From the NCBI RefSeq assembly GCF_000016745.1, contig NC_009483.1:240001-272000 (forward strand): DNA of 32,000 nt. The letters run 5' to 3'. The position numbers and the translations under genes were made by a program. Numbering within the stretch: position 1 is the first letter of the stretch; every line of letters begins with the position of its first letter. The notes beneath the pieces are model-generated. The model was not told where the DNA came from and made no database searches. It saw only the letters and a list, made by a program, of their open reading frames with translations. The stretch is from Geotalea uraniireducens Rf4 (GTDB lineage Bacteria > Desulfobacterota > Desulfuromonadia > Geobacterales > Geobacteraceae). Shown here piece after piece: positions 2,469-19,280 of the stretch.

Positions 2469-4393
2469 GTGCGCCAGGCATGGCGCGTGGCGCGTAAGCG
2501 CCATCCAATTGGGTATGGTGCCTGATTGGTGACTTGGAGGTGAAAGTCCTCTTCGGACCCTGATGGTGGGAACCGATAGCTGAACAGCAAGGGTGTCCGG
2601 GGCGACCCGGAATCTGAAGGAAGCTGTAGGCAAAGTCCTGGCCCGACGAACAGGAATCGCATATGAGGCAGCCACATCTGGGCGAGAAGGCAAACAGATT
2701 CAAAGCCCGATAACCATCCAGAAAGATGTGGAAGTAGATGCGGCGGGTATATGGGATGAAGGTCACGCGCATTACCCTGGGAGGTCTGTCAACCTGCCTT
2801 GTGCTACCGGCATCGAGAGGTGCCGGGATGGGTTGGCAGAAGTCAGCAGAGGCCATACGAGTCGGAATAACCGACCGACAAAGGGCCGAACTTGAAGTAA
2901 GCGGACAGGAGCCTTGAGTTTCGATGACGACAGGAGCAGCAGAAGGCCGGGTTGGGATACCCGGCGCCAGCCCGGAGGGTAGCGGTTGGAAACCGCGAGA
3001 GAAAGGGAGAGGTGCGGCAAACGTCACGGGAAGGAAAGCAGCTCACTGGCCGGAAGCGGCAACGGGACTGATGGAGAAGATCGTCAGTCGCGGCAACATG
3101 ATGGCGGCATACTCACGGGTAATGCGCAACAAGGGAGCGCCCGGCGTCGATAACATGCCGGTAACGGCCCTGAAGGGCTACCTACAGGAGGAATGGCCGC
3201 GCATCAGAGAAGAACTGCTGACGGGAACGTATCACCCGCAACCGGTGCGGAAAGTAGAAATTCCCAAACCGGGAGGCGGCACACGGATGCTGGGAATTCC
3301 CACCGTCCTTGACCGACTCATTCAGCAGGCGGTGCATCAAGTTTTGAGCCCGCTGTTCGACCCTGGTTTCTCCATAAGTTCCCACGGGTTTCGCCCTGGA
3401 CGGAGCGCCCATCAAGCGATCAAGGCAGCTCGGAAGTATGTAGAGAGCGGCCTTAGGTGGGTGGTTGACATTGACCTTGAGAAATTTTTCGACCGAGTCC
3501 ACCACGACACCCTTATGTCGCTGGTGAAACGCAAGGTTGGAGACCGTCTGGTGCTGTCCCTTATCGACAGCTACCTTAAGGCAGGGATACTTGAAGGAGG
3601 AGTGACGTCACCCCGGTTGGAAGGCACGCCGCAAGGCGGGCCTCTCTCGCCGCTGCTGTCCAACATCCTCCTCGACGAACTGGACAAGAAACTGGAAAGA
3701 AGGGGCCATAAGTTCTGCCGCTATGCCGACGACGCAAATATCTATGTTGCAACGAGGAGAAGCGGCGAGCGTGTCATGGCCTCAATTACCGGCTACCTGT
3801 CCGAGCGGCTCAAGCTCACGGTCAACCAGGGCAAAAGCGCGGTTGACCGTCCGTGGAAAAGGTCGTTTCTGAGTTACAGCATGACCCGGCACCGCAAACC
3901 GCGGCTTACCGTGGCCAAGAAAGCGGCTGCCAGGCTCAAGGCCAACCTCAAGACGATCTTTAGGCGGGGAAGGGGTCAGAACATCCAAACCACCGTTGAA
4001 GAGACAACCCCGAAACTTAGGGGTTGGTTAAACTACTTTCGGTACGCGGAAGTAAAAGGCATCTTCGAGGAACTGGACGGATGGCTGAGACGTAAACTGC
4101 GTCGCATTCTCTGGAAGCAGTGGAAGCGCCCCAAGACGCGAGCAAAGAAACTGATGCGGCGGGGATTATCGGAGGCAACTGCATGGCGGTCGGCCACAAA
4201 CGGCCGCGGCCCCTGGTGGAATGCAGGGGCCGCGCATATGAACAAAGCTGTTCCGAAATTCTACTTCGACAAACTGGGGCTGGTATCACTCATAGACCAG
4301 CTTCACCGACTTCAACGTACTTCATGAACCGCCGTGTACGGAACCGTACGCACGGTGGTGTGGGAGGACGGCGGGAGCAATCCCGCCTCCTAC
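2469..4393 (+). mobile_element. Group II intron (bacterial, class C-like), apparently full length
   Basis: 5' GTGCG at 2469. Intron-encoded RT ORF lies in domain IV. The domain V-like hairpin at 4329-4358 is CCGCCGTG-TACG/GAAC/CGTA-(CG bulge)-CACGGTGG. The domain VI-like hairpin with a GCAA loop ends ...CCTAC at about 4393. The 3' boundary is uncertain by about 10 nt. Confidence 0.8.
3071..4327 (+). CDS. Group II intron reverse transcriptase/maturase (no endonuclease domain evident)
   Basis: The ORF is open from 2924, but homology-type sequence starts at MEKIVSRGNMMAAYSRVMRNKGAPGVDNM (ATG 3071, 418 aa). Has RT blocks including RMLGIPTVLDRLIQQA and the catalytic YADD (FCRYADDANIYV), plus a maturase X-like C-terminus (LRGWLNYFRY). 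Confidence 0.9.
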   Translation: MEKIVSRGNMMAAYSRVMRNKGAPGVDNMPVTALKGYLQEEWPRIREELLTGTYHPQPVRKVEIPKPGGGTRMLGIPTVLDRLIQQAVHQVLSPLFDPGFSISSHGFRPGRSAHQAIKAARKYVESGLRWVVDIDLEKFFDRVHHDTLMSLVKRKVGDRLVLSLIDSYLKAGILEGGVTSPRLEGTPQGGPLSPLLSNILLDELDKKLERRGHKFCRYADDANIYVATRRSGERVMASITGYLSERLKLTVNQGKSAVDRPWKRSFLSYSMTRHRKPRLTVAKKAAARLKANLKTIFRRGRGQNIQTTVEETTPKLRGWLNYFRYAEVKGIFEELDGWLRRKLRRILWKQWKRPKTRAKKLMRRGLSEATAWRSATNGRGPWWNAGAAHMNKAVPKFYFDKLGLVSLIDQLHRLQRTS

Positions 4394-4486
4394 CCGATTT
4401 AACCGCAAGGGGAATACTGGCAATACCCGGCTTGTGCGGTACAATTTTTCTACGGAGAAGTCAGGCGGTTCTCAAGGAGGACGAGG

Positions 4487-5377
4487 ATGAACATATTTCT
4501 CAGCGGCGGCACTGGCTTTGTCGGCGGCCATCTTAGGAGGGCCTTGCTGGAGAAAGGGCACCGGATCAGGCTCCTTGCCCACAAGAGGGGGGATGGTTTC
4601 GAAGATGGGATTGAGGTGGTGGAAGGGGACGTGACCCGCCCTGACACCTTTGCCGGGCAGCTCGCGGGGTGCGAAGCCGCAATCAACCTGGTGGGGATAA
4701 TCCGCGAGTTTCCGGCGCAGGGCATAACCTTCGAGAAACTTCTTGTGCAGGCCACCCGAAACATGGTCGATGCGGCAAAAGGGGCGGGAATAAAGCGTTA
4801 CCTTCACATGTCGGCCCTGGGGACCAGGCCGAACGCCACCTCCGCGTATCATAGGTCCAAGTTTCTCGCAGAGGAATATGTCCGCGCCTCCGGCCTGGAT
4901 TACACCATTTTCCGTCCGTCCATTATTTTTGGGCCGAAGGACGATTTCATCAATAAACTTGCCGGATACATCAAGGGCTATCCGGCAGTGCCGGTCATCG
5001 GCGACGGCAAATACCGGCTCCAGCCGATAGCGGCAGACGATGTGGCGCGTTGCTTTGCCATGTCTCTGGAAATGCCGGAGACGGTCGGCAAAACCTATGA
5101 AATCTGCGGCATCGACCGGCTTACCTACAATGAAATGCTCGACACCATCGGTCGTGTGCTCGGCAAGTCGCACGTGGCTAAAATCCCCAACCCGCTCGGC
5201 ATCATGAAGCTCGTGGTCCCGCTTCTGCAAGGGTTCTCGTTTTTTCCCATCACCATGGACCAGATTTTAATGCTCGTAGAGGAAAATATCTGCGACGGCG
5301 CCTGGCGTGAAACCTTCAACTTCGAGCCGCAACGGTTCGAAGAGGGGATACGCGCCTATCTGCGGCCGCACGGGTGA
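4487..5377 (+). CDS. NAD(P)-binding atypical SDR (NmrA/NDUFA9-like epimerase/dehydratase family)
   Basis: 296 aa with an AAGGAGGA RBS. N-terminal Rossmann motif FLSGGTGFVGGHL, and YxxSK (YHRSKFLAE). Confidence 0.8.
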   Translation: MNIFLSGGTGFVGGHLRRALLEKGHRIRLLAHKRGDGFEDGIEVVEGDVTRPDTFAGQLAGCEAAINLVGIIREFPAQGITFEKLLVQATRNMVDAAKGAGIKRYLHMSALGTRPNATSAYHRSKFLAEEYVRASGLDYTIFRPSIIFGPKDDFINKLAGYIKGYPAVPVIGDGKYRLQPIAADDVARCFAMSLEMPETVGKTYEICGIDRLTYNEMLDTIGRVLGKSHVAKIPNPLGIMKLVVPLLQGFSFFPITMDQILMLVEENICDGAWRETFNFEPQRFEEGIRAYLRPHG

Positions 5378-5469: not shown

Positions 5470-5643
5470 ATGGTCACATCTCCGGAAAAAAACGCGTGCA
5501 CGAAGTGCGGCAGCGAAAATGTCGAGCAGACCAAGGAAGGGCTTTACTGCAACGCCTGCGAACGGATGGTGCGGGTAAGCCGGGCGGTCCATCACGAAGG
5601 TTTTCCCCATGTGGTGGTCGATGAGAACGAGCAAGAGCCGTAA
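5470..5643 (+). CDS. Small (57 aa) zinc-ribbon protein, absent from the ORF track because it is under 60 aa
   Basis: ATG at 5470 lies 6 nt after GGGAGG (5458-5463). Translation is MVTSPEKNACTKCGSENVEQTKEGLYCNACERMVRVSRAVHHEGFPHVVVDENEQEP, with CxxC-x13-CxxC. The stop at 5641-5643 is only 5 nt before the nrdJ ATG. Confidence 0.6.
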   Translation: MVTSPEKNACTKCGSENVEQTKEGLYCNACERMVRVSRAVHHEGFPHVVVDENEQEP

Positions 5644-5648
5644 TCCAT

Positions 5649-7346
5649 ATGGAGCTTTCAGAGAACGCCCTAAAAGTGCTGAGGGCCCGTTACCTGCTGA
5701 AGGATGAACAAGGAAGGGTCATCGAGTCTCCCAGGGAAATGTTCGGCCGCATAGCCCGCAGCGTCGCAGAGGCGGAAAAATTTTACGGCGACAGGGCATG
5801 TTACTGGGAAGAACGGTTTTATGAGCTGCTCTCTTCCCTGAGGTTCCTTCCCAATTCGCCGACGATCATGAACGCCGGGAAATCACCCGGGCAACTGGCC
5901 GCCTGCTTTGTCCTCCCTGTGGAAGACTCCATGCCGGGAATCTTCGATACCCTGAAAAACGCCGCGCTGATTCTCCAGAGCGGCGGCGGCACCGGCTTTT
6001 CCTTTTCCCGCCTACGTCCCAAGGCCGATATCGTCCGTTCCACCGGCGGCATCGCCAGCGGCCCGGTTTCCTTCATGAAGATCTACAACACGGCCACTGA
6101 CGTGATAAAGCAGGGGGGGGCGCGGCGCGGCGCAAACATGGGGATACTGCGCATCGACCATCCCGATGTGCTGGAGTTCATCCGGGTCAAGAGGGATGCA
6201 AAGGAGCTCGCCAATTTCAACATCTCGCTGGCAATAACCGATGCCTACATGGAGGCGTTGCGGGCAGACGGGGAATATCAGCTCGTCAATCCCCGGACAG
6301 GGAAGAGTGCAGGGCGTCTGCGGGCAGGGGAGGTCTTCGGCGAGATCGTTGCAAGCGCCTGGGAAACCGGGGATCCCGGACTGGTCTTCATCGACCGGCT
6401 CAACCGGGCCAATCCCACGCCTGCGGCCGGCAGTTTCGAAAGCACCAACCCCTGCGGCGAACAGCCGCTCCTCCCCTATGAGGCGTGCGTCCTCGGCTCC
6501 CTCAATCTGGCTGCCCATGTGAAGGGCGGCGTCATCGACTATGATGCCCTGGGAAGAGACGTGGCTGTTGCGGTGCGCTTCCTCGACGATACCATCGACG
6601 TTAACAGCTACCCCCTGCCGGCCATTGAACGGATGCACAAGGGGAACCGGAAGATAGGCCTGGGGGTGATGGGATGGGCGGACATGCTGGTCCTGCTCGG
6701 AATCCCCTATGACCACGAGAAGGCATTCAGGCTTGCGCGGGAGGTGATGCGCTTCATCCGGGACGCATCCAGGGAGGCCTCCTGCGCCCTGGCCAAGGAA
6801 CGTGGCGTCTTCCCCAATTTCGCCGGCTCAATTTACGATGCGCCGCACATGCCCCGGCTGCGCAACGCCACCACAACCACCATCGCCCCTACCGGGACCC
6901 TCTCCACCATCGCCGACTGCTCAAGCGGCATCGAGCCTCTCTTCGCCCTTGCCTACAAGCGTTTTGTCCTGGATAGCGAGTTGGTCGAGATTAACAAATA
7001 TTTCCTGCAAATGGCAAAAGAGCAGGGTTTTTACTCCGTTGAGCTGTTTCAGGAAGTGATGCGACGGGGGAACCTGCGCCAGGTAAAGGGAATTCCCTCC
7101 CGGGTGAAAAGGCTTTTCCGGACGGCGCTGGAAATCCTTCCCGAACACCACATCGAGATGCAGGCCGCCTTTCAGGAATATACCGACAACGCCGTCTCCA
7201 AGACCATCAACCTGCCCAACCGCGCCAAGAAAGAGGATGTGGCGCGCGCCTACCTGCTCGCCTACGAAAAAGGGTGCAAGGGGATCACCGTCTTCCGCTA
7301 CGGCGCCAGGCGCGGGACCCTGGTCAAGTTTGCCGATACGGACTGA
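5649..7346 (+). CDS. nrdJ: Class II (adenosylcobalamin-dependent) ribonucleotide reductase, short form
   Basis: 565 aa. N-terminal ALKVLRARYLLKDEQG, the NSPTIMNAG motif, the catalytic NPCGEQPL loop, and the C-terminal core motif GCKGITVFRYG. Confidence 0.9.
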   Translation: MELSENALKVLRARYLLKDEQGRVIESPREMFGRIARSVAEAEKFYGDRACYWEERFYELLSSLRFLPNSPTIMNAGKSPGQLAACFVLPVEDSMPGIFDTLKNAALILQSGGGTGFSFSRLRPKADIVRSTGGIASGPVSFMKIYNTATDVIKQGGARRGANMGILRIDHPDVLEFIRVKRDAKELANFNISLAITDAYMEALRADGEYQLVNPRTGKSAGRLRAGEVFGEIVASAWETGDPGLVFIDRLNRANPTPAAGSFESTNPCGEQPLLPYEACVLGSLNLAAHVKGGVIDYDALGRDVAVAVRFLDDTIDVNSYPLPAIERMHKGNRKIGLGVMGWADMLVLLGIPYDHEKAFRLAREVMRFIRDASREASCALAKERGVFPNFAGSIYDAPHMPRLRNATTTTIAPTGTLSTIADCSSGIEPLFALAYKRFVLDSELVEINKYFLQMAKEQGFYSVELFQEVMRRGNLRQVKGIPSRVKRLFRTALEILPEHHIEMQAAFQEYTDNAVSKTINLPNRAKKEDVARAYLLAYEKGCKGITVFRYGARRGTLVKFADTD

Positions 7347-7453
7347 TTTGCCCGCCCATCTTTTCAAGACATGCCTCCGAGAAAACATGCAGGCCGATTG
7401 TGTCGATATTAATGTACCGTGGGTGAATAAATTGTGTTTATGAGACATTTCTG

Positions 7454-7484
7454 TTGACAGTTGCTCGGCAGCGGTTGTATCAAG
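7454..7484 (+). promoter_or_regulatory. Candidate sigma70 promoter driving the riboswitch leader
   Basis: TTGACA at 7454-7459. The best -10-like hexamers are GTATCA (17-nt spacer) or TATCAA (19-nt spacer), so the -10 is weak. Confidence 0.3.
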
Positions 7485-7499
7485 TCAAATCAAGAATAT

Positions 7500-7587
7500 T
7501 TCGGAAACCGACGAAAAGGCAAAGCACGGGCAACCGTGTGACGCAAAGCTACCTGTCCAGTTGCAACTGGATAGAGGGGCTGCCGAA
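7500..7587 (+). promoter_or_regulatory. GEMM-I (cyclic-di-GMP-I class) riboswitch aptamer
   Basis: P1 is TTCGG (7500-7504) / CCGAA (7583-7587). Conserved GGCAAA, then a CACGG-GCAA-CCGTG hairpin (GNRA tetraloop), then the GACGCAAAGC signature, then a second hairpin UCCAGU-UGCA-ACUGGA and GGGGCUGCC. This matches the Vc2-type consensus as I recall it. Confidence 0.8.
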
Positions 7588-7601
7588 TAGGTGATGGAGA
7601 C

Positions 7602-7633
7602 AGGCCTACCCTTTCGGGGATAGGCTTTTTTTT
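7602..7633 (+). terminator. Intrinsic terminator forming the riboswitch expression platform
   Basis: AGGCCTACCC / GGG(GA)TAGGCT stem with a 2-nt bulge, followed by eight T at 7626-7633, located 143 nt upstream of the next ATG. Confidence 0.75.
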
Positions 7634-7775
7634 ATCCTTCAGTGGCTGCGTCGTCGCCGAAACCGGCTCCGGCCAGGCGGGGTAAGGAAAAGGTGAAAGA
7701 TGATATGGTAGGGACCTGATATAAAGATAAGTTAAGAATCTTGTTGAATCAGTCACAGCGGCTCGGGAGGGTAAG

Positions 7776-8738
7776 ATGGAAGCATTATTGCGGAATATGG
7801 TTCTGATAATGTTTGTGTGGCTGATGCTGGCGGGGGTCTGCCTTGGCAAGCAGGTCTATATGACGGATGGCGGCATCATAGATTGCGAATCCATCTGGCG
7901 GCGGGGCGGCCAGGTTATTGTCAAGGTGAACCGGGACATTGTCGTCGATTTTGAACGGAGCGAAATAGATTTAAAACGGACCTTCCCCGAAGCCAAGAAA
8001 AACCCCCATCGCGTCCTACGAAAAAAAACTGCCCGCGCTGTTGTGCCACCCAGCGCTACGGCACTGGCTGCCGCAGCGCCAACGATTCCCGTTACGGCGG
8101 CGCCTCCTGCGCCAGCAGCAAATCCGGTCCGGCCACAAGCAGCTGCTCCGGCACTCGCAGCAAAACCGGTTCCGTCTCCTGCTCCCGCCCCCGCGCCGGA
8201 GGCGAAAGAACCAGTTCAGCCTGAATCGGCTCAATCCGCTTCCGCAGATCCTTCTTTGCCCCCTGACAAAGCAGAGATGGAGCGTCGGAGTCGGCAAGCT
8301 GCGGAAATGATGGCCGAGGCAATACAGAAGAAAGATCCCGAACTGTTAAAAAAGGCCATTGAGGCTCAGAAGAGCGCCATGCCGCAAAACAGGGCAGAAA
8401 CTGCGGGAAGGAGCCTCAGATACCTGCTCCTCCTGCTGGCCGTTTCCCTCCTGATTGTTGTTTCCATGTGGGTCGTATTCGAAAAGGCAGGTCAATCAGG
8501 CGTTCTAAGCATTATACCGATTTACAACATGTACGTCCTGATGGAAATATCCGGCAAGCCCGGATGGTGGCTGGTCCTGCTGTTCATCCCCGTTGTCGGC
8601 TTTGTGTTCCTTCTCCTGGCCATGCTCGCTCTGGCCGAAAAATTTGGCAGAGGCGCATTGTTCGGCCTTGGGCTATTCTTTTTGCCGATGTTCTTTTTCC
8701 CGATGCTTGCCTTTGGCGGTTCGCAGTATGAGGGGTAA
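7776..8738 (+). CDS. Membrane protein with signal/anchor, small N-terminal domain, Pro/Ala-rich linker and C-terminal DUF5684-like multi-TM domain
   Basis: 320 aa with a GGGAGGG RBS. The C-terminal MWVVFEKAGQSGVLSIIPIYNMYVLMEISGKPGWWLVLLFIPVVGFVF...FGLGLFFLPMFFFPMLAFGGSQY matches the DUF5684 pattern as I recall it. Confidence 0.7.
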   Translation: MEALLRNMVLIMFVWLMLAGVCLGKQVYMTDGGIIDCESIWRRGGQVIVKVNRDIVVDFERSEIDLKRTFPEAKKNPHRVLRKKTARAVVPPSATALAAAAPTIPVTAAPPAPAANPVRPQAAAPALAAKPVPSPAPAPAPEAKEPVQPESAQSASADPSLPPDKAEMERRSRQAAEMMAEAIQKKDPELLKKAIEAQKSAMPQNRAETAGRSLRYLLLLLAVSLLIVVSMWVVFEKAGQSGVLSIIPIYNMYVLMEISGKPGWWLVLLFIPVVGFVFLLLAMLALAEKFGRGALFGLGLFFLPMFFFPMLAFGGSQYEG

Positions 8739-8806
8739 GAGGCAAAAGCGGGGAAACAAAATCTACGAATATATAGAAAAATAATCTCACTCCATAGGAG
8801 CCCCCA

Positions 8807-9748
8807 ATGCCCGATCCCCGCATTCAGAAAGCACTCCGCGCCCTCTCGGACAACATCGAACAAGTAATCGTCGGTAAAAAGGAGGTGATCGACCTGGCGA
8901 TCATTACCCTCCTTTGCCGCGGCCACCTCCTCATCGAGGACGTTCCAGGCCTCGGCAAGACCATGCTTGCCCGTGCCATCGCCGGCTCGTTGTCGCTGGA
9001 CTTCAAGAGGGTCCAGTTCACCCCCGACCTGCTGCCGTCGGACGTGACCGGCGTCTCCATCTACAACCAGAAGAGCGGCGAGTTCGACTTCCGTCCCGGG
9101 CCGGTCTTCACCAACCTCCTCCTGGCGGACGAGATCAACCGGGCGACCCCCCGCACCCAGTCGAGCCTCCTGGAGTCCATGGAGGAGCGGCAGGTGACTA
9201 CCGATGGCACTACCCGGCCGCTGCCGCCGGTGTTCATGGTGGTAGCCACCCAGAACCCCATCGAACTGCAGGGAACCTATCCGCTCCCAGAGGCTCAGCT
9301 CGACCGGTTTTTCATGCGGGTGAGTGTTGGCTATCCGGCCCGTAACGAGGAGGTGCGGGTGATGGAGATGCAGATCCGCGAGCACCCGATCCATGGCATC
9401 AAGCCGGTTCTCACCGAAGAACACGTGCGCTTCATGCAGAATGCGGTGACCGAGGCGCATATCGACCGCTCGCTCCTCGCCTACATCGTCGACATCGTCA
9501 ATGCTACCCGTAAGCACCCGGAACTTCAGGTCGGGGCGAGCCCGCGAGGCTCTCTCTCCCTCATGCGGGCGGCCCAGGCGATGGTTCTCTTGCGCGGCAT
9601 GGAGTTCGTGGAGCCGACGGTGATCAAGACCCTCGCCCGTCACGTCCTCACCCACCGCTTGATCGTCAAGCCCCAGGCGCGCCTGAAAGGGTTGACCGAG
9701 GCCAAGGTGGTGGAGGAGATCCTCCAGGGAATACCTGCCCCGGTATGA
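8807..9748 (+). CDS. MoxR-family AAA+ ATPase
   Basis: 313 aa. Walker A is EDVPGLGKTMLARA and Walker B is LLADEINRATPRTQSSLLE. Also has VVATQNP and the MoxR C-terminal lid (GASPRGSLSLMRAAQA). Confidence 0.92.
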   Translation: MPDPRIQKALRALSDNIEQVIVGKKEVIDLAIITLLCRGHLLIEDVPGLGKTMLARAIAGSLSLDFKRVQFTPDLLPSDVTGVSIYNQKSGEFDFRPGPVFTNLLLADEINRATPRTQSSLLESMEERQVTTDGTTRPLPPVFMVVATQNPIELQGTYPLPEAQLDRFFMRVSVGYPARNEEVRVMEMQIREHPIHGIKPVLTEEHVRFMQNAVTEAHIDRSLLAYIVDIVNATRKHPELQVGASPRGSLSLMRAAQAMVLLRGMEFVEPTVIKTLARHVLTHRLIVKPQARLKGLTEAKVVEEILQGIPAPV

Positions 9749-10983
9749 GCGGATTGGAACGCTTGCTCACCCGGCGCAACGCCCTTCTCGTCCTGGCGGC
9801 GGTATTCTTCCTCATCGCCTGGAACCGGGAGGTGAACCTCCTCTACGGCATGTTCGCCCTGGTTAGCGCCACCGTCATCGTTGCCGTCATTCTCCCCCGT
9901 TTTGCCCTCAAAGGTATCGAGGTGTGCCGCATGCTTCCGACCGCGGCATTCGAGGGGGAGGAGATCGAGGTCTGCGTCACCATGGCCAACCGGGGACGGG
10001 CCTCACGCTTCATGGTGGAGGCAGTGGATGCCGTTCCCGCCGCCGCTCCCCACGAGCGGGAGCCGCTGGTCTTTGCCGGCAGGCTGGTGGGGCGGGCGCA
10101 GCGCAATTTCAGCTACCGGCTTGTCTGCTACAAACGTGGCCTTTATACGGTCGGTCCGCTCCGGCTCCGCTCCGCCTATCCCTTGGGAATAGCCTGGTCG
10201 GAGCGGGAAGGGGACCCGTCCCTCCACACCCTCCTCGTCTATCCGTTCATGTTCGAGATCGCCTCCTTTCCCCTCATTGCGACTGGAACCCTCGTGACGA
10301 GCGGCATGGAGTCCCTGGCACGGGCGGGGGGGAGTGACGACTTCTTCGGCACGCGCGAGTACCGCCAGGGGGACAGTCTGCGCCATATCCACTGGCCCTC
10401 CACGGCACGACATGACCGGCTCATCGTCAAAGAGTTCGAGGTACGCGTTTCGGCGGAGACGACCCTTCTTCTCGATCTCCACCGTGATGCTGATGTGGGG
10501 GAGGAGCGGGAATCGACCCTGGAATACGGGGTGCGGATCGTCGCATCCGTTGCCGGCTATGCCCTGGAAAGGGGGCATACGGTGCAGCTGGCCGGCTTTG
10601 GCAAGGGGTCCCATGTGGTCCCGCCGGGGAGAGGCAGGCACCACCTGGCACAGCTGCTCGATGCGCTGGCTCGGGTGGAAAGCGATGGCCGTATTCCCTA
10701 CCATGAAGCCATCGTCCGCGCTGCCGACCTTATGCGGGACGGGAGCACGGCGGTCCTCTTTTTCTCCGGCGGCGAATCGCTCGAAGATTATCTCTATCCC
10801 CTCGGTCTTCTTCGGGCAAAACGGGTGCGGCCGGTGGCGGTCTTCTTCGACCGGGCGAGCTTCTCCGGCGAATTCTCTTTCTCCCGGCCGGCAGAAGATC
10901 CGCTCCCCCGGGAGCTCTTCGCCATGGGGGCACCGGTCTATTTCGTGGCCAGGGGCAGCGATCTGCGGGAGGTGTTTGCATGA
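9745..10983 (+). CDS. DUF58 domain protein (vWA-like fold), the usual MoxR partner
   Basis: 412 aa. ATGA overlap with the moxR-like stop. Two N-terminal TM helices. Signature REYRQGDSLRHIHWPSTARHDRLIVKEFE. Confidence 0.88.
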   Translation: MSGLERLLTRRNALLVLAAVFFLIAWNREVNLLYGMFALVSATVIVAVILPRFALKGIEVCRMLPTAAFEGEEIEVCVTMANRGRASRFMVEAVDAVPAAAPHEREPLVFAGRLVGRAQRNFSYRLVCYKRGLYTVGPLRLRSAYPLGIAWSEREGDPSLHTLLVYPFMFEIASFPLIATGTLVTSGMESLARAGGSDDFFGTREYRQGDSLRHIHWPSTARHDRLIVKEFEVRVSAETTLLLDLHRDADVGEERESTLEYGVRIVASVAGYALERGHTVQLAGFGKGSHVVPPGRGRHHLAQLLDALARVESDGRIPYHEAIVRAADLMRDGSTAVLFFSGGESLEDYLYPLGLLRAKRVRPVAVFFDRASFSGEFSFSRPAEDPLPRELFAMGAPVYFVARGSDLREVFA

Positions 10984-13271
10984 CGGAGCGCATCCAGTAC
11001 CCCCCCGTTTACCTGGGGATATACTTTCTCCTCATGACTGCCGTGACGGCTGCCATGTGCGCCGTAGCGCCGCCGCTCCAGGCTATTGCCTACACCCTCT
11101 TCTGGGGGGGTGTCTATGGCGCCGGCCTCTATTTCTGCCGCAGGTTCGGTGAGGACAACGAGGAGCGATTCCAGCAGCTCGCCAACGGCGGCGCCGGACT
11201 CGCCCTTGTTCTCTTTTTCGGCGGCTTCGCCTTTTCCGGCGTCGAGACGGGACTCATCCTGCTGCTCCTCACCCTCCAGGCGGGGCGCAACCTGGTTCTC
11301 GCCACCCGCCGCGACCTGAACTTCGCCTGCCTGATTTCCCTCGTTCTCCTCCTCTACGCAGCCGGGAAGGCAATGGAGGGGTACTTCATCGCATTTATCG
11401 TTCTCTATGCCCTGGCGGGAATGTTCACCTTCATGACCGATCACATCGATGCCCGCCTCACCCATGCCCATGGCGGGGATCGGGATCTCCTCAGCCGACG
11501 GATGAACCTGCCGGTGAAGGGAATCGGCTTGGCGCTACTCACCCTTGCACTCGCTTTCGGTATCTACCTGCTGGTGCCGCGGCCACCGTCACCCCGGGTG
11601 CAGGCATTCCCGGCATCGAGTAACTGGAACTACGATAACCGTCACTGGGAAGAAGAGGCAAAGATGCCGCGCCAGGATGGCCAAGGGCAAAACGACGATG
11701 GCAACGGGGAGTCCGACATGAGCCGCCGCCAACTGGTCGAAGCATCCCAAGGACAGGTTAACTCTTCCGAGTACGGCGGGTTTCAAAACAGGTTCGACGT
11801 CGCGGAAGTCGGGGAGTGCGCCCTCCGCCCCGATACGGTGGTTCTCTATCTCCAGGCGGACAACCCTCTCTATGCAAGGGGCAAGGTATTCGACACCTTT
11901 GACGGCCGCCGCTGGGAGGATAGCGGCGCCGGCGCCGAGAAACACTATAACCGGGATGGCCGGTTTACCTTCGGCGCAAAGCCTCAACCCGGCGATACGC
12001 TCCAGGTCTTCACCGTACGCCAGGATCTCCCGCCGTTCATCTTCGCCGCCTACCAGCCGATCCTCGTCTCCTTTCCGGGGAACGTGATCGAGACCGACGG
12101 CGCCCTTGCCCTGCGCGCTCCTGCCCGGCTCCGCAAGGGAACCATATACTCCGTAGCCTCCCACCTGGAGGAGGTGGACAAGCATCCCTGCAGCGGGGCG
12201 TCCATGGCCGGTGATGATGGGTGGACGCCGGACGGCCGTTATCTTGCCCTCTATCCCGATATCTCCGAGCGCTTGCGCGCACTTGCCAGCGACATGGCCA
12301 AGGGGGCCACGGATGACCTCGGACGGGCGAAGGCAGTGGAAGCCTACCTGCGGGATAACTTCGCCTATACCCGCGATACCATGGGGGTCAAATGGAGCGG
12401 CAATCCTGTGGAGCAGTTTCTCTTCGACCTGAAGGCCGGGCATTGCGAGTTGTTCGCCTCCTCCATGGTGGTCATCCTGCGCACCCTCCACATCCCGGCC
12501 CGGCTCGTCACCGGTTTCTACGTCAACCGCTACAACCCGGTCACCGGCTACTACGAGGTGCGGGAGTCGGACGGCCATGCCTGGGTGGAGGCATACCTGG
12601 AGCCGCACGGCTGGGTCACTTTCGAGCCGACCTCCAGCTTCGAGCTGCCGAAGCGAAGCCAGCGGCTCTTCGTTGCCACCGGGCTGGTCCGTTATCTGGG
12701 CGACCGCGCCGAAAACCTGATCCGCAAGCACCGGCATTCCTGGTGGACACAGCTTCTGCAAAAGATCTGGACGGTACTGCTTAAGCTCTGGCTGGCCCTC
12801 ATGGCCACCCTCGCAATGATGAAATTGGCCTGTCTTTCCCTCTGGTTCTGGTTTCTCCGGGTGGGGTGGATGCTTATTCTGCTACTCCTCGCCGCCGCTG
12901 GCGGGGGCTGGTACCTGTGGCGCTATTTCGAGCCGGCCTGGCGTCTCGCGCGGCTGCGCCGGGCCCGCGATGGGGACCCGCAGCGTTTTCTGCGCCTCTG
13001 CTACCGGGAGATGGAGCGGCACTTTGCCGCACGGGGAGTAGCACGGGCACCACATGTCACGCCGCTGGAGTACGAGCTACTCCTCGCCAAGCGCTTTAAA
13101 TTCCTGTCTGATCAAGTTGCTGCCATTACCCGTCTCTTCCAGCAAGCCGCCTACGGCTCCGCGCTGGTCGCTGCCGCCGATGCGGAGGAGGCATTTCGGG
13201 CGTTTGAGGAGATACAGCGGTGGAAGAGTCCAACCCATAGGGATGGGAAATTCTATGCAGAAAATGATTGA
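10980..13271 (+). CDS. Polytopic membrane transglutaminase-like protein with a DUF4129-like C-terminus
   Basis: 763 aa. ATGA overlap with the DUF58 stop. N-terminal multi-TM region. Transglutaminase core GHCELFASSMVVILRTLHIPARLVTGFY...SDGHAWVEAYL...GWVTFEPT. C-terminal TM segment plus a TPLEYELLL-type DUF4129 segment. Confidence 0.88.
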   Translation: MTERIQYPPVYLGIYFLLMTAVTAAMCAVAPPLQAIAYTLFWGGVYGAGLYFCRRFGEDNEERFQQLANGGAGLALVLFFGGFAFSGVETGLILLLLTLQAGRNLVLATRRDLNFACLISLVLLLYAAGKAMEGYFIAFIVLYALAGMFTFMTDHIDARLTHAHGGDRDLLSRRMNLPVKGIGLALLTLALAFGIYLLVPRPPSPRVQAFPASSNWNYDNRHWEEEAKMPRQDGQGQNDDGNGESDMSRRQLVEASQGQVNSSEYGGFQNRFDVAEVGECALRPDTVVLYLQADNPLYARGKVFDTFDGRRWEDSGAGAEKHYNRDGRFTFGAKPQPGDTLQVFTVRQDLPPFIFAAYQPILVSFPGNVIETDGALALRAPARLRKGTIYSVASHLEEVDKHPCSGASMAGDDGWTPDGRYLALYPDISERLRALASDMAKGATDDLGRAKAVEAYLRDNFAYTRDTMGVKWSGNPVEQFLFDLKAGHCELFASSMVVILRTLHIPARLVTGFYVNRYNPVTGYYEVRESDGHAWVEAYLEPHGWVTFEPTSSFELPKRSQRLFVATGLVRYLGDRAENLIRKHRHSWWTQLLQKIWTVLLKLWLALMATLAMMKLACLSLWFWFLRVGWMLILLLLAAAGGGWYLWRYFEPAWRLARLRRARDGDPQRFLRLCYREMERHFAARGVARAPHVTPLEYELLLAKRFKFLSDQVAAITRLFQQAAYGSALVAAADAEEAFRAFEEIQRWKSPTHRDGKFYAEND

Positions 13272-13549
13272 TGGGTATTCAACATGAAAACGACAGAAAA
13301 GTTGAAAAAGGAAGTCACGGACTTAATAGGCGGCGCCCCTTGCATGGGGGAGGGGAAGCCGCCGGCCTTTAGAGGCTTATGGCGTTGACACCGCGACATG
13401 TTAAGGTGTATTTTTGTCCATCAAACGGCTGTTATCAGTCGTGTAGCCACGGTGCACCATATCTGATAAGATGTCTATGTTCGTGCGCATAATTGATAAC
13501 TCATCAACTCCGACAATTGAATTCAAAGTGATGATAGGACGACCAAAGC

Positions 13550-14416
13550 ATGAAGATACAATGCCCGAATTGTAAGATTAGCGGCCAGATCAGTGATGCT
13601 AAGGTTCCCGCGGAGGGAATCATGATGAACTGTCCGAAATGCAAGACCCCCTTCCGGGTGAAGAGGGATGCAGCATCCGGGTGGCAGAGCGGCGACTGCA
13701 TGAGCATCTGCCCGGGGTGCCATTACTCTACGTTTTCCGATGAAACGTTCGATATCTGCCCGAAATGCGGGCTCGTGGCCAGGGAATACAACGCGAAACT
13801 CCGGGACAAGAGTCAGCGTGAGGAGCGGATGCGGGAGGAGGAACGGCTCCGCCTCGAAGAGGAGAAGGCGTTCCGCAAATACGGAATAATTGAAGACGTG
13901 CCCAAAGCCCAGGCCGAAGCACCGGCCGTGGCCGACATCCCACCGGCGATCCAGTTTGCCGGCTGGACAGTCGTTGCCGTTGCGCTCCTGTTGCTGATCT
14001 TTGGCTGCAAGGGGTTGTACGCCTTCTACGCCGTGAGCAGCATGGAAGCTGCCGATCCGGCAACCCTCGAAGAGCCGCGTACGACGGCGGCGCTTTTTCT
14101 CGAATTCGGCCTTTTGCCTGCGTTTCAGATTGTGTTCGGTGCGGTTGCGTTGGTCGCCGGGTCACAGTTCCTGAAACTTCGCGCCTGGGCGCGCAATGCC
14201 TTGGAATGGGCTGCCTGGGCCGGGCTGGTATTCATGAGCGGTTATGAGCTTTTCAACCTCGTGGCCTGGATCAGGCGGTCATCGAGTACTCCCACCATCT
14301 CTTATTATGCGGTCGGCATCTTGAGCGCACTCGGCATGCTGGCGGTCTGGATCGCGCCACTCCTCTTCCTTATCCGGTTTCTGCGCGGGAGCACGGTAAA
14401 AAAAGCCGTTGTGTAA
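13550..14416 (+). CDS. Double zinc-ribbon (MJ0042-type) membrane protein
   Basis: 288 aa. MKIQCPNCK...NCPKCKTPFRV matches the MJ0042-family finger. A second CPGC...CPKCG ribbon follows, then a charged REEERMREEERLRLEEEK helix and about four C-terminal TM helices. Confidence 0.75.
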   Translation: MKIQCPNCKISGQISDAKVPAEGIMMNCPKCKTPFRVKRDAASGWQSGDCMSICPGCHYSTFSDETFDICPKCGLVAREYNAKLRDKSQREERMREEERLRLEEEKAFRKYGIIEDVPKAQAEAPAVADIPPAIQFAGWTVVAVALLLLIFGCKGLYAFYAVSSMEAADPATLEEPRTTAALFLEFGLLPAFQIVFGAVALVAGSQFLKLRAWARNALEWAAWAGLVFMSGYELFNLVAWIRRSSSTPTISYYAVGILSALGMLAVWIAPLLFLIRFLRGSTVKKAVV

Positions 14417-14444
14417 AGGAACGACAGCAGATACCCCAGTTTTG

Positions 14445-14567
14445 TTCCAATTCCAAATCAAGGCGATATCTTCGTTGGCTCGTTTTCGGCTCCTCAACGT
14501 ACTATCTGTACGCCTTCGTCGCCTCACTCCTCGCCGCCTTGATTTCATCCTTGATTTGAAATTGGAA
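14445..14567. repeat. Long-range inverted repeat between convergent genes
   Basis: TTCCAATTCCAAATCAAGG (14445-14463) versus CCTTGATTTGAAATTGGAA (14549-14567) is complementary at 18/19 positions. A second partial partner, CGCCTTGATTT (14535-14545), is perfectly complementary to 14455-14465. Confidence 0.6.
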
Positions 14568-16004
14568 TTACAGGTAGGGGGAGAAGAGTTTTGCCATCCC
14601 GTCCCGGATCTTTTCCGGAATGCTCCTGGCGTTATCGACCTCGGTGAGCGTGACTTCCCTTGATTCAGCCACAGCCGCGGCAAATTTGTCCGCCAGTTGC
14701 CGCGCAAGCTCCCCGTCATACACCTCCAGGTTAAGCTCGAAGTTCAGCCTCAGGCTGCGCGGGTCCAGGTTTGCCGAGCCGATCAGACTCCAGATGTTGT
14801 CCACCAATAGCAGCTTGGTATGGACGAAAGGTGGCGGCTGATAATAGACTTTTATGCCCTGCTGCAGGAGCTCCCAGAGGTAAGCCCTGCCGGCCCAGTG
14901 GACAAAGGGGAGGTTGTTCAGCGACGGCAGCACCAGGGTTACTTCAACCCCGCGCAGTGCGGTAGTGACCAGGGCAGAGATCAGCGGACGGTCGGGGATG
15001 AAGTAGGGGGTCATGATCTGCACCCTCTCTCTGGCGCAGGAAAGCGCCCCCATGATGATCCAGTTGAGCTTCCTGAATTCCTTGTCCGGTCCGTCGCTTA
15101 CAGCCCTGACCAGCGCTCCCCCCGCCGGGGAGATGGTGGGGAAAAACCGCTTGTCTTTGACGAGTTCGCCGGTGACAAAGTACCAGTCTTCTAGAAAGGT
15201 CCGTTGCAGGTCGCTTACCACCTGTCCCTCGACCATGAAGTGCATGTCTTTAACAACCGGTGGTCCGCTGTCTCTCTTCACCATATGCCGGTCGCCGATG
15301 TTCATTCCGCCGGTAAAGCCCCTTGAGCCGTCCACGACGAGGATCTTCCGGTGGTTGCGCAGATTTACGTATCCACCCTGTCGGAGCGGGAGAAAGCGGC
15401 CGACCCTTACCTTTGAGCCTTTCAGAAGTTTGCGCGCGGTGGGGCGGGAGTACTTTTCACCGAGGCTGTCGATAATGATGCGCACCTCCACGCCTCTTGC
15501 CGCAGCGTCTTTCAGGGCTTTCACAAATCTGCGCCCTGTCGGGTCTCCGTCGAATATGTAGGTGCTCAGGTTTATCGAATGGGTTGCATGGTTTATTGCA
15601 TCGAGCATGGCGGGATAGGCAGACTCACCGTTTTCCAGCGGTGTGAGTCGGTTGCCCGGAACGAGTAGAGTGCTGACTACCCGGTCGGAGAGGGAGCGGA
15701 GTTCGTTCAGGTATTTCGCTTCCGGGGGGAGGGTGCTTGCCGCTTGCCGGGTATTTCGGGGGGAAAAGTTTTCCCACCCTGCCAGACGCCGGCCGCTCTC
15801 CAGCCACTGGCGCGCCTTGCGGGAGATGCGGTTTACTCCCATGCTCCAATAGAGCAGTGGGCCGAAGAGGGGGAGGGTCAGGCAGACGATGATCCATCCC
15901 AGCGCGGAACGGGGGTCCCGCTTCAACAGCAGGGCGTGGCCCGCTGAAAGAAGCGCAAGGGCAGTCAGCGAGCAGAAGAAAAGTCCCTGTAAAACGTGAT
16001 CCAA
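14568..16004 (-). CDS. cls: Cardiolipin synthase (PLD superfamily)
   Basis: 478 aa. TTG start preceded by GAGGAGG. Two N-terminal TM helices. Two HKD motifs (HRKILVVDGSRGFTGGMNIGD and HTKLLLVDNIWSLIGSANLD). Confidence 0.92.
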   Translation of the reverse strand: MDHVLQGLFFCSLTALALLSAGHALLLKRDPRSALGWIIVCLTLPLFGPLLYWSMGVNRISRKARQWLESGRRLAGWENFSPRNTRQAASTLPPEAKYLNELRSLSDRVVSTLLVPGNRLTPLENGESAYPAMLDAINHATHSINLSTYIFDGDPTGRRFVKALKDAAARGVEVRIIIDSLGEKYSRPTARKLLKGSKVRVGRFLPLRQGGYVNLRNHRKILVVDGSRGFTGGMNIGDRHMVKRDSGPPVVKDMHFMVEGQVVSDLQRTFLEDWYFVTGELVKDKRFFPTISPAGGALVRAVSDGPDKEFRKLNWIIMGALSCARERVQIMTPYFIPDRPLISALVTTALRGVEVTLVLPSLNNLPFVHWAGRAYLWELLQQGIKVYYQPPPFVHTKLLLVDNIWSLIGSANLDPRSLRLNFELNLEVYDGELARQLADKFAAAVAESREVTLTEVDNARSIPEKIRDGMAKLFSPYL

Positions 16005-16099: not shown

Positions 16100-16660
16100 T
16101 TAGAGAAGGCTGTATGGCTGAGCCCGCTTGACCCATTCGCTGTCCGGATAATCGGACGCGAGTTTTTCGTAGGCTTCCTTCAGTGGCTTGGCGTCGTGGC
16201 TGCTTTTGAAGCGGCAGACACCGCGCAGGTAGACCGCTTCCGGTGCGGCTGCGCTTTTCGAATAGCTGGACAATATCTCATCCAGGTGGAGTATTGCGTC
16301 GTTAAACTGCTCCGTGTCGAAATCGGTCTTTCCCATCCCCAGCAGCAGTGAGGGGACCAGCTCGTCGGGTGGGAGGAATCCGACGGTCCGGTGATGTTCC
16401 CTGCCGTAGTAATCCAGTGAAACCAGGGTGGGGGTCCACATGACCTTGAACTCGGTGGAGAGCGGCTGGGCATCAGCGGGGACCCGCAACGGCACAATTT
16501 TCCGGTCGATGAAATCTATGACTTTTGCATTGGGATACGTGACCGCATCCATCTGTTTGCAGCCGATTCAGCCGGGGTTGAAGAAATCGAGGAGTATCGT
16601 CCGTTTTTCGGCTTGTCCCCGGGCAAGGGCCTTGCTCATTTCCGTTTCCCATTTAATCAT
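16100..16660 (-). CDS. Thioredoxin-fold protein with probable selenocysteine (UxxC) at codon 31
   Basis: The track ORF 16100..16552 continues in frame upstream through TGA (16570-16568) to ATG 16660, which is preceded by GGAGG (16672-16668) at 7-nt spacing. The N-terminus reads MIKWETEMSKALARGQAEKRTILLDFFNPG-U-IGCKQMD, which resembles the LVDF..WCxxCKxM thioredoxin-like motif with Sec replacing the first Cys. Confidence 0.75.
16533..16550 (-). promoter_or_regulatory. Candidate bacterial SECIS hairpin
   Basis: The minus-strand sequence GGAUGCG-GUCA-CGUAUCC forms a 7-bp stem including one G-U pair. It starts 17 nt after the UGA, and the apical region contains GGUC as in E. coli fdhF. Confidence 0.55.
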
Positions 16661-16702
16661 GGCCAGACCTCCGTGGAAAAGAATAAAGACATCCTGAGTC
16701 TA

Positions 16703-16730
16703 AGATTAGCCCGACTTGGGGCGATGTCAA
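16703..16730 (-). promoter_or_regulatory. Candidate promoter for the selenoprotein gene
   Basis: Minus strand TTGACA (16730-16725), 16-nt spacer, TAATCT (16708-16703). The -35 is perfect and the -10 is weak. Confidence 0.35.
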
Positions 16731-16925
16731 GAAATGCGTCGCTAGCCTGTGTCGCCAGGAGTCTGTCGGACTTAGGAATGAATCTACTGCGAGAATGGCA
16801 AATCGGTCCATATTTCCGTAAATTTTCGACAAATAGGTCCACCATTAGCTCTCAAATTTCCGAAAATCTGTCCTCGATTTTCCATCCTCTCGCTACGATT
16901 CTCTAAGTCCGACAAACTCCTAGCC

Positions 16926-19060: not shown

Positions 19061-19113
19061 CGTTCGATGTTCGATGTTCTACGTTGTAAACCTCGAACCT
19101 CGAACTTCGAACG
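19061..19113. repeat. Imperfect 23-bp-arm hairpin built from tandem TTCGA units; possible rpe terminator or REP-like element
   Basis: CGTTCGATGTTCGATGTTCTACG (19061-19083), loop TTGTAAA, CCTCGAACCTCGAACTTCGAACG (19091-19113). 19 of 23 positions are complementary. There are three TTCGA copies per arm plus one more at 19056-19060, and the tail is only TTT. Confidence 0.55.
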
Positions 19114-19242
19114 TTTCATATGGAGCTGAAAGAAAAAATAAGGGCTGCATTGGCCGCTCACCGCCGCCATTCTCAAGCAGTTCCTCGATCTGGCGTTCGG
19201 CTGACCCCGCCGGACTTTCTTCGCAGCAAGCGTCAAATTCTC

Positions 19243-19270
19243 TTGACTTTATTCCTGCGAATTCTGTAAT
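19243..19270 (+). promoter_or_regulatory. Candidate promoter immediately upstream of the REC-GGDEF gene
   Basis: TTGACT (19243-19248), 16-nt spacer, TGTAAT (19265-19270). The ATG is only 11 nt downstream of the -10. Confidence 0.35.
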
Positions 19271-19280
19271 CATAGCGACT

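Follow-up and report, generated by a model that had tools for sequence, protein, structure and literature searches.

A c-di-GMP-I riboswitch leader in front of a DUF5684-MoxR-DUF58-TgpA gene cluster in Geotalea uraniireducens Rf4: a putative OFF-controlled operon

In Pseudomonas aeruginosa a MoxR-family AAA+ ATPase, a DUF58 protein and the transglutaminase (TGase) TgpA are encoded by the co-transcribed genes PA2875, PA2874 and tgpA; the periplasmic domain of TgpA is active as a TGase in vitro, and tgpA is essential (PMC3507681). GEMM riboswitches are common in Geobacter and related genera, where they lie upstream of varied genes (Weinberg et al. 2007, PMC1950547), and in the Geobacter group many copies precede genes for membrane proteins, pili and cytochromes (PMC1950547, PMC8835794, PMC6140456). 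An A at the G20 position typifies the elements of the cyclic GMP-AMP (cGAMP) class (PMC6140456, PMC5888326). Two expression platforms differ in their layout: in the Cd1 OFF switch the terminator is compatible with the aptamer, whereas in the pilM ON switch the two are mutually exclusive (PMC9262584). Here we describe a stretch of 32,000 nucleotides (nt) from Geotalea uraniireducens Rf4 (contig NC_009483.1, positions 240,001 to 272,000; the whole stretch is hereafter called the window), in which a cyclic di-GMP (c-di-GMP) riboswitch stands in front of a gene for a DUF5684 membrane protein and a MoxR-DUF58-TGase triad. An earlier note on this DNA, made from the sequence alone, had pointed to five consecutive + strand genes behind a riboswitch and had called the function of the triad undefined, a view that the literature shares (PMC3507681, PMC12067865).

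The reading that we favour, with a probability of about 0.62, is that a promoter-riboswitch-terminator leader controls a single operon of four genes, g1 to g4, as an OFF switch resembling Cd1, and that this operon joins a TgpA-type module to the DUF5684 gene g1. The leader runs from a promoter-like element through the aptamer to a hairpin with a run of eight U residues (U8), and a further 142 nt lead to the ATG of g1. The features are listed below with the source of each call in brackets; all five genes lie exactly where the earlier note had placed them.

7454-7483, + strand: promoter-like element ahead of the riboswitch leader (sequence reading and alignment)
7508-7587, + strand: c-di-GMP-I (GEMM-I) aptamer (Rfam RF01051)
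7584-7616, + strand: candidate antiterminator (minimum-free-energy fold of truncated transcripts)
7604-7633, + strand: intrinsic terminator, hairpin 7604-7625 and U8 7626-7633 (sequence reading and folding)
7776-8738, + strand: g1, DUF5684 membrane protein (open reading frame (ORF) list and Pfam)
8807-9748, + strand: g2, MoxR-family AAA+ ATPase (ORF list and Pfam)
9745-10983, + strand: g3, DUF58 protein (ORF list and Pfam)
10980-13271, + strand: g4, TgpA-type polytopic transglutaminase-like protein (ORF list and Pfam)
13385-13414, + strand: promoter-like element of g5, which marks the operon end and lies outside the operon (sigma-70 consensus scan)
13550-14416, + strand: g5, zinc-ribbon membrane protein, an adjacent gene outside the module (ORF list and Pfam)

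The aptamer, on the + strand, scores 69 bits with RF01051, whose gathering score is 35 (E = 9.8e-12; the match covers the full model, positions 1 to 87), and is the sole c-di-GMP-I aptamer that Rfam finds within the 32-kb window. Riboswitches were surveyed by Rfam scans and by a covariance model built from eight aptamers, and the two approaches agree; Rfam places orthologous aptamers at seven further loci (L092, L009, L011, L001, L093, L105 and L096, the L numbers denoting loci compared with the window). When the eight leaders are aligned, 94.7% of the pair cells are paired, against 32-40% with the partners slid, and four aptamer pairs show compensatory changes in which both partners differ, such as C-G replaced by U-A at columns 13/36; the two-hairpin fold is thereby supported, in a small sample whose eight leaders amount to seven distinct sequences. 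With this score and this covariation, the riboswitch that had been placed upstream of g1 stands as a true c-di-GMP-I element. Ligand contacts were judged at the equivalents of G20 (where A marks the cGAMP class), A47 and C92. G7518, the Vc2 G20 equivalent by our own alignment to the Rfam consensus, immediately precedes the GC pair closing the first junction and is a G in 8/8 aptamers; the GACGCAAAGC motif and CCGAA (7583-7587, with the C92 equivalent) are likewise present, and are invariant in the eight leaders. Because the G20 equivalent is G throughout, c-di-GMP is the predicted ligand and the window aptamer is predicted to be selective for it rather than for cGAMP; assignment to the cGAMP (GEMM-Ib) class was rejected on the same ground.

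Ahead of the aptamer stand TTGACA (7454-7459) and TATCAA (7478-7483), separated by an 18-nt spacer. In a leader alignment of four lineages (window, L009, L011 and L001) both hexamer regions are invariant while their flanks diverge; the consensus scan missed the element because the last base of its -10 hexamer is A. It would drive the riboswitch leader, with a start near 7490. The terminator hairpin is GCCUACCCU-UUC-GGGGAUAGGC (-11.3 kcal/mol), followed directly by U8. Folding predicts a stable hairpin with a U-run in 8/8 homologous leaders, and in L001 a change from U to C in the 5' arm is offset by a matching change in the 3' arm. Because this prediction holds in all eight leaders, and because the window, L009, L011 and Geotalea toluenoxydans (L001) can be aligned over promoter hexamers, aptamer and terminator alike, the leader reads as a transcription-termination switch.

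The polarity of this switch can be judged from its layout. The core terminator stem (7604-7625) overlaps neither the aptamer nor P2, and aptamer and terminator coexist in the minimum-free-energy fold. The candidate antiterminator is formed by CGAAUAGGU (7584-7592), which pairs with GCCUA (7604-7608) and UUCG (7613-7616), and it is the minimum-free-energy structure of transcripts cut before the 3' arm of the terminator; for L001 and L093 folding predicts a comparable but stronger helix, CCGAAGGGU/ACCCU-AUCGG. Folding finds no upstream sequence other than the 3' tail of the aptamer that pairs with the 5' arm of the terminator. Since the C92 equivalent lies within CCGAA, the antiterminator would compete with the ligand pocket, and it is this competition, together with the coexistence of aptamer and terminator as in Cd1, that makes an OFF switch, with c-di-GMP promoting termination, the probable polarity. 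Two features weigh against this assignment: the antiterminator of the window is weak (9 bp with a 4-nt bulge), and its register differs between lineages.

The alternative that survives best keeps the operon and reverses the switch, so that high c-di-GMP, as in cells attached to a surface or living in a biofilm, would induce g1-g4. The weak antiterminator speaks for it, pilM of Geobacter works as an ON switch (PMC9262584), Weinberg et al. (2007, PMC1950547) proposed that the ligand induces expression where the terminator of a GEMM element overlaps P2, and the minimum-free-energy fold of the window extends the terminator stem to GGU at 7590-7592, which could compete with P1. Here, however, the core stem is clear of P2 and of the aptamer, the two structures coexist in the layout of the Cd1 OFF switch (PMC9262584), and the 5' arm finds nothing upstream to pair with except the aptamer tail, all of which leaves an ON switch possible at a clearly lower probability than OFF. 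The earlier note had tied the genes to biofilm or surface signalling; the riboswitch input stands, and the direction, on a Cd1-like platform, is probably repression by high c-di-GMP and not induction in the biofilm. If the OFF polarity is right, the envelope module would be a feature of cells low in c-di-GMP and not of the biofilm state.

An OFF-controlled operon of four genes would work as follows. A sigma-70-type promoter near 7454-7483 would start a leader that carries the aptamer and a separate intrinsic terminator. With c-di-GMP bound, the aptamer would hold its 3' tail (CCGAA and UAGGU), the hairpin and U8 would form and transcription would stop; with the ligand absent, the tail would pair with the 5' arm of the terminator, and RNA polymerase would read through into a single g1-g2-g3-g4 mRNA, on which g2/g3 and g3/g4 would be translationally coupled via their ATGA overlaps. 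The cytoplasmic MoxR AAA+ ring and its membrane-anchored, vWA-like DUF58 partner would act on the polytopic TgpA protein, whose Cys-His-Glu transglutaminase-fold domain would face the periplasm and modify an envelope protein or the cell wall. The product of g1 would be a Geobacteraceae-specific adaptor or substrate, with an inner-membrane DUF5684 anchor, a Pro/Ala linker and a small periplasmic beta-barrel. Of all this, the elements, their conservation, the linkage of the genes and the separateness of g5 were observed; the single mRNA, the polarity and the protein-level roles of g1-g4 we infer.

The genes themselves are closely packed. Both ATGA overlaps reported in the earlier note, at 9745-9748 (g2/g3) and 10980-10983 (g3/g4), are read directly in the sequence, and the coordinates leave gaps of 68 nt between g1 and g2 and 278 nt between g4 and g5. 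The 68-nt gap, rightly described as free of a terminator, holds neither a + strand terminator-like nor a promoter-like site in the consensus scan; it is AT-rich in the window, and in an alignment of eight loci its Shine-Dalgarno sequence is the only conserved part. A GC-rich hairpin downstream of g4 (13329-13363) lacks both a U-run and conservation and is not assigned as a terminator. The region 7300-13450 has no notable flanking direct or inverted repeats, and a mobile-element origin of the riboswitch-g1-g4 block was rejected on this ground.

The linkage of these genes was followed from three sides, namely from g1, from the TGase and from distant phyla. The g1 side was surveyed by context look-ups and through 42 metagenome loci retrieved with the g1 N-domain and screened by tblastn. 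All 208 g1 homologues carry DUF5684, the named ones belong to Geobacteraceae, Pelobacteraceae or Desulfuromonadaceae, and three contexts can be distinguished:

Context A, g1→MoxR→DUF58→TGase (g1 identity 51-98%): window, L092, L009, L011, L097, L103, L105, L109, L118, L134, L136, L137
Context B, g1 adjoining DUF898 and Peptidase_M48 (g1 identity to the window 40-55%): about 14 loci
Context C, g1 linked to neither module (g1 identity 45-66%): L001/L002, L093, L102, L119

The gap between g1 and g2 in context A measures 36-96 nt in 11 of the 12 loci and 228 nt in L105. MoxR orthologues in the related g1-linked clusters are 85-98% identical, and TGase orthologues of 54-95% identity are common in Geobacteraceae; a look-up of four additional ones found DUF5684 directly upstream of MoxR in three, the fourth (L135) being a triad without g1. 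An outgroup from distant phyla was provided by 80 loci from a genome-collection scan with the g4 alignment A2, whose motifs are very general and whose listed matches are all from distant phyla, with no Geobacteraceae among them; a search of the genome collection with the single TGase protein gave no matches. MoxR→DUF58→TGase are adjacent in about 52 of the 80 loci, among the matches listed and from many phyla, which agrees with the description of the triad as a widespread conserved neighbourhood. A hidden Markov model from the g1 alignment A3 found no g1-type ORF in these approximately 52 loci, again among the matches listed, and by Pfam the gene that precedes MoxR is unrelated to DUF5684 in all 10 distant loci that were sampled. 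The triad thus appears to be ancient and widespread, and because its linkage to g1 was found in 12 Geobacteraceae loci and in none of the distant loci listed, this linkage would be a Geobacteraceae-specific elaboration; the association of the DUF5684 gene with the triad that the earlier note had proposed is therefore conserved and clade-specific.

The riboswitch is distributed differently, in the following arrangements:

Riboswitch immediately ahead of g1, triad following: window, L092, L009
Riboswitch → ZnR-TPR gene → g1 → triad: L011
Riboswitch → TPR gene → 178-aa gene → g1: L105 (triad next), L096 (contig ends)
Riboswitch → g1 → convergent cls, triad absent: L001/L002 (Geotalea toluenoxydans), L093
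g1 and triad, riboswitch absent: L097, L134, L103, L109, L118, L137

The ZnR-TPR protein (560-590 aa; N-terminal Zn_ribbon_4, membrane segments and C-terminal TPR) is encoded directly upstream of g1 at L011:7248-8927, L097:8229-9923 and L134:2946-4706, with 72% identity between lineages, and in L011 its gene stands between riboswitch and g1. None of the context-B loci has the riboswitch, nor does it occur upstream of the triad in any of the approximately 52 distant loci among the matches listed. The only distant locus among those matches with GEMM-I-like elements is L083, from an Alkaliphilus metagenome-assembled genome, where they lie at 14439-14526 and 16654-16735, 3-5 kb downstream of the TGase gene, and presumably serve other genes. 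Because all eight riboswitch-bearing loci have g1 and only five of them the triad, the riboswitch tracks g1 and not the triad. The placement of a riboswitch over the triad, as first proposed, holds in so far as the element recurs ahead of the four-gene core in three configurations, but it is g1 that it follows; and of the parts that orthologous clusters might have kept, the DUF5684 gene is retained (12 loci), the GEMM-I element is found at some loci only and g5 is missing downstream of the triad in five loci. In a rough neighbour-joining tree of g1, the riboswitch-less L097/L134/L118 lineage nests between riboswitch-bearing lineages, which suggests, crude as the tree is, an ancestral riboswitch with later losses and a loss of the triad in the G. 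toluenoxydans lineage.

Several points weigh against the operon that we favour. Co-transcription of g1-g4 is read from spacing and synteny. The riboswitch precedes g1 alone in G. toluenoxydans and L093 and is missing from at least six g1-triad loci, and is thus neither necessary for nor specific to the triad. Nor is g1 dedicated to the triad, because its homologues also occur alone or beside DUF898 and the M48 peptidase. Promoters internal to the P. aeruginosa cluster have moreover been detected (PMC3507681), and the window cluster may have one too. The same points nourish an alternative in which the riboswitch effectively controls g1 only and g2-g4 form a self-sufficient TgpA cluster, transcribed mainly from an unrecognised internal promoter. 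The riboswitch→g1→←cls loci, the triads that lack a riboswitch (about 52 distant ones among the matches listed besides those of Geobacteraceae), the g1-less triad of L135 and the AT-richness of the g1-g2 gap would all fit. Against it, that gap and its surroundings are free of promoter-like and + strand terminator-like sites, the ribosome-binding site alone is conserved there across the eight loci, the spacing is tight in all context-A loci except L105, and the riboswitch-g1-g4 block is missing as a unit from L138, so that control of g1 alone is an unlikely account.

The predicted proteins are in keeping with a four-gene envelope module. In g1, DUF5684 (PF18936) covers residues 245-320 (82.7 bits against a cut-off of 27.4), and the P/A-rich character and DUF5684-like C-terminus ascribed to it earlier are confirmed by this match and by a Pro/Ala-rich linker of about 90 residues (71-165; 27 Ala and 23 Pro in 95 residues). 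By eye, in alignment A3, the N-terminus resembles a type-I signal peptide with CLG or AFA before KQ. An AlphaFold2 model made with A3 has a small, confidently modelled five-stranded beta domain at residues 25-60 (pLDDT ~83), disorder at 74-162, two helices forming a hairpin at 165-201 and then the membrane anchor, with four to five helices over 209-314 against three hydrophobic transmembrane (TM)-like segments by hydropathy. The N-domain has no Pfam family match even at E = 5, and its non-significant Foldseek likeness to Sm/SH3-like barrels and YgdR-type lipoproteins (all E > 0.1) suggests only a fold class. Pfam assigns g2 to AAA_3 (214 bits, 5e-64) with AAA_lid_2, its nearest solved structure being 2r44 (E = 1e-73), and g3 to DUF58 (67.5 bits); N-terminal hydrophobic stretches in g3 fit about two TM helices, and a sequence search found no solved relative. 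Matches to TgpA_N, Transglut_core and DUF4129 define g4, which has about five N-terminal TM segments and then a loop of about 400 residues that holds the transglutaminase core; more TM segments follow at about 596-646, and DUF4129 forms the tail. Its residues 420-575 align with 6g49, the periplasmic domain of P. aeruginosa TgpA (E = 6e-19), Cys489 and His533 falling on catalytic residues and Glu549 on the Asp position. This Glu (FEPT motif, 12624-12626) in place of Asp as third triad residue is a further point against the favoured reading; it is invariant in 21 clade members, Nitrospirae included, and may still be catalytic, and the motifs GHCE, HAWVE and EPT are invariant in alignment A2.

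Penicillin-binding-protein genes (transglycosylase/transpeptidase) lie immediately upstream of the triad in three of the ten sampled distant loci (L013:5441-7684, L065:5290-6735, L077:4409-6859), which hints at a cell-wall connection of the triad. An envelope role is indirectly suggested by these neighbours, by the TgpA literature and by the pairing of g1 with a membrane M48 protease module. The second g1-like DUF5684 subfamily (L003, L004, L106-L133; about 14 loci) consistently adjoins a DUF898 membrane protein and Peptidase_M48, often with gaps below 20 nt and always without the riboswitch. A speculative and rather doubtful extension would be that g1-type DUF5684 proteins are periplasm-spanning tethers and dedicated clients or adaptors of membrane envelope-modifying enzymes, with TgpA and its MoxR/DUF58 chaperone as partner in one g1 subfamily and the DUF898/M48 peptidase pair in the other, and that c-di-GMP shuts tether remodelling off in Geobacteraceae. 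Were this true, the MoxR-DUF58-TgpA module would have in g1 its first candidate for a physiological substrate or partner.

The putative operon ends before g5, an independent neighbour with its own putative promoter. Pfam agrees with the two zinc ribbons that the earlier note saw in g5, with Zn_ribbon_4 at 42 bits and a second, weak match; the inclusion of g5 in the functional unit is not supported. TTGACA, 18 nt and TATTTT at 13385-13414 form the only sigma-70-like match of the consensus scan in 7300-14800, and L092 and L009 share the roughly 190 nt upstream of g5 (13360-13549) in strikingly conserved form but not the sequence just past the g4 stop. The conserved stretch includes about 130 nt between the promoter-like site and the start codon, which may hold a 5' UTR element, and has no Rfam match. 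L138, with no riboswitch, g1 or triad, keeps g5 (85% identical) and the same promoter-like sequence in the order ribonucleotide reductase→g5→←cls. After the TGase gene g5 is absent in L011, L118, L135, L136 and L137; the gene that follows the triad is cls in L011, an MCP gene in L137, a second TGase gene in L135 and, with the translation judged by eye, a hydrogenase maturation protease-like ORF in L118. Although g5 is adjacent on the same strand in the window, L092 and L009, and although Zn_ribbon_4 proteins (ZnR-TPR) recur upstream of g1 in three loci and resemble g5 at 36% identity, within a 45-residue ribbon to which the similarity is confined, a five-gene functional unit is very improbable given the conserved promoter-like element of g5, its solitary retention in L138, its absence from five triad loci and a total of 11 homologues, of which the more distant, such as one of 47% identity (L139), stand in unrelated context.

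Further upstream in the window, a group II intron (2596-4398; Rfam D1-D4 and Intron_gpII matches, reverse transcriptase/maturase ORF 2924-4327) sits between a ychJ-like gene (1936-2418) and an epimerase gene (4487-5377), which are adjacent and intron-free in L009 and L011. Between the epimerase gene and the riboswitch, 5470-7346 holds a 565-aa ribonucleotide reductase gene and a preceding 57-aa ORF, an arrangement found only in the closest relatives of the window (L009, L092) and in L138. The ribonucleotide reductase gene is absent from L011 and G. toluenoxydans, which makes the stretch from epimerase to cls a hotspot where genes are gained and lost. A gene for a response-regulator-GGDEF diguanylate cyclase (19074-20210) lies 4.7 kb downstream within conserved cls-rsmB-rpe synteny (L001, L138), and its closeness to the riboswitch is probably coincidental. 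At L135:200-13647 the g1-less triad is preceded by genes for a histidine kinase, a GAF-HD-GYP protein and a response-regulator-PilZ protein, with domains that turn over or bind c-di-GMP, and followed by a second, 989-aa transglutaminase-core protein, a possible independent link to c-di-GMP in a single case.

Set beside the described systems, the locus is like the P. aeruginosa cluster in its gene order, PA2875 (MoxR)-PA2874 (DUF58)-PA2873 (TgpA), and in the build of its TGase, TgpA and g4 both having an N-terminal polytopic domain, a core between TM blocks and a C-terminal tail. Catalytic Cys and His align, Asp there is Glu in g4, sequence similarity is limited to about 155 residues of the core, and the P. 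aeruginosa cluster has neither a DUF5684 gene nor a riboswitch, whereas the window has both. In the Bat (Bacteroides aerotolerance) operon, the vWA proteins BatA/BatB and the TPR proteins BatC/BatE follow MoxR-DUF58; by Pfam the window cluster has no VWA-domain gene, and TPR genes occur only upstream and in some relatives, so that a Bat-type operon was rejected. In MoxR-vWA-beta-propeller ternary conflict systems MoxR has a vWA protein dedicated to it and, as a further partner, a beta-propeller protein or an effector (Kaur et al. 2020, as cited in PMC12067865); this assignment was rejected too, since bpMoxR is a secondary match of 46 bits against 214 for AAA_3 and Pfam finds no vWA or beta-propeller partner. 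The Bifidobacterium PFNA operon (pkb2-fn3-MoxR-DUF58-tgm) and the mycobacterial moxR1 operon likewise surround a MoxR-DUF58(-TGase) core with lineage-specific accessories (PMC8430577, PMC12067865), there a Ser/Thr kinase and an FN3 protein, or ripAB neighbours and a vWA protein, with no riboswitch, and in the clade of the window a DUF5684 membrane protein with or without a TPR or ZnR-TPR protein.

As to the leader, Cd1 of Clostridioides difficile shares the aptamer family, a separate and compatible terminator, and an antiterminator opposed to the ligand-bound fold (PMC9262584); it differs in preceding flagellar genes in a Firmicute and in having unrelated expression-platform sequences, and the polarity of the window element is a prediction. 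The GEMM-I and GEMM-Ib elements of Geobacter belong to the same family and the same bacterial group (PMC1950547, PMC8835794, PMC6140456), the window element differing from GEMM-Ib in its G, not A, at the G20 equivalent. The literature search found no paper that mentions DUF5684 and none that links GEMM to a transglutaminase or MoxR. By itself the riboswitch is an ordinary RF01051 member, and the triad, apart from the change of Asp to Glu, is an ordinary TgpA-type cluster; it is the combination, a DUF5684 gene in the cluster across Geobacteraceae with a c-di-GMP riboswitch in front, that we have not found described. The locus offers c-di-GMP, through the riboswitch, as a defined small-molecule input predicted for the widespread MoxR-DUF58-TgpA trio, supplies in g1 a conserved clade-specific partner gene, plausibly an adaptor or substrate, whose family also pairs with a membrane M48 protease module, and extends the c-di-GMP riboswitch regulon of the Geobacteraceae by a further class of genes.

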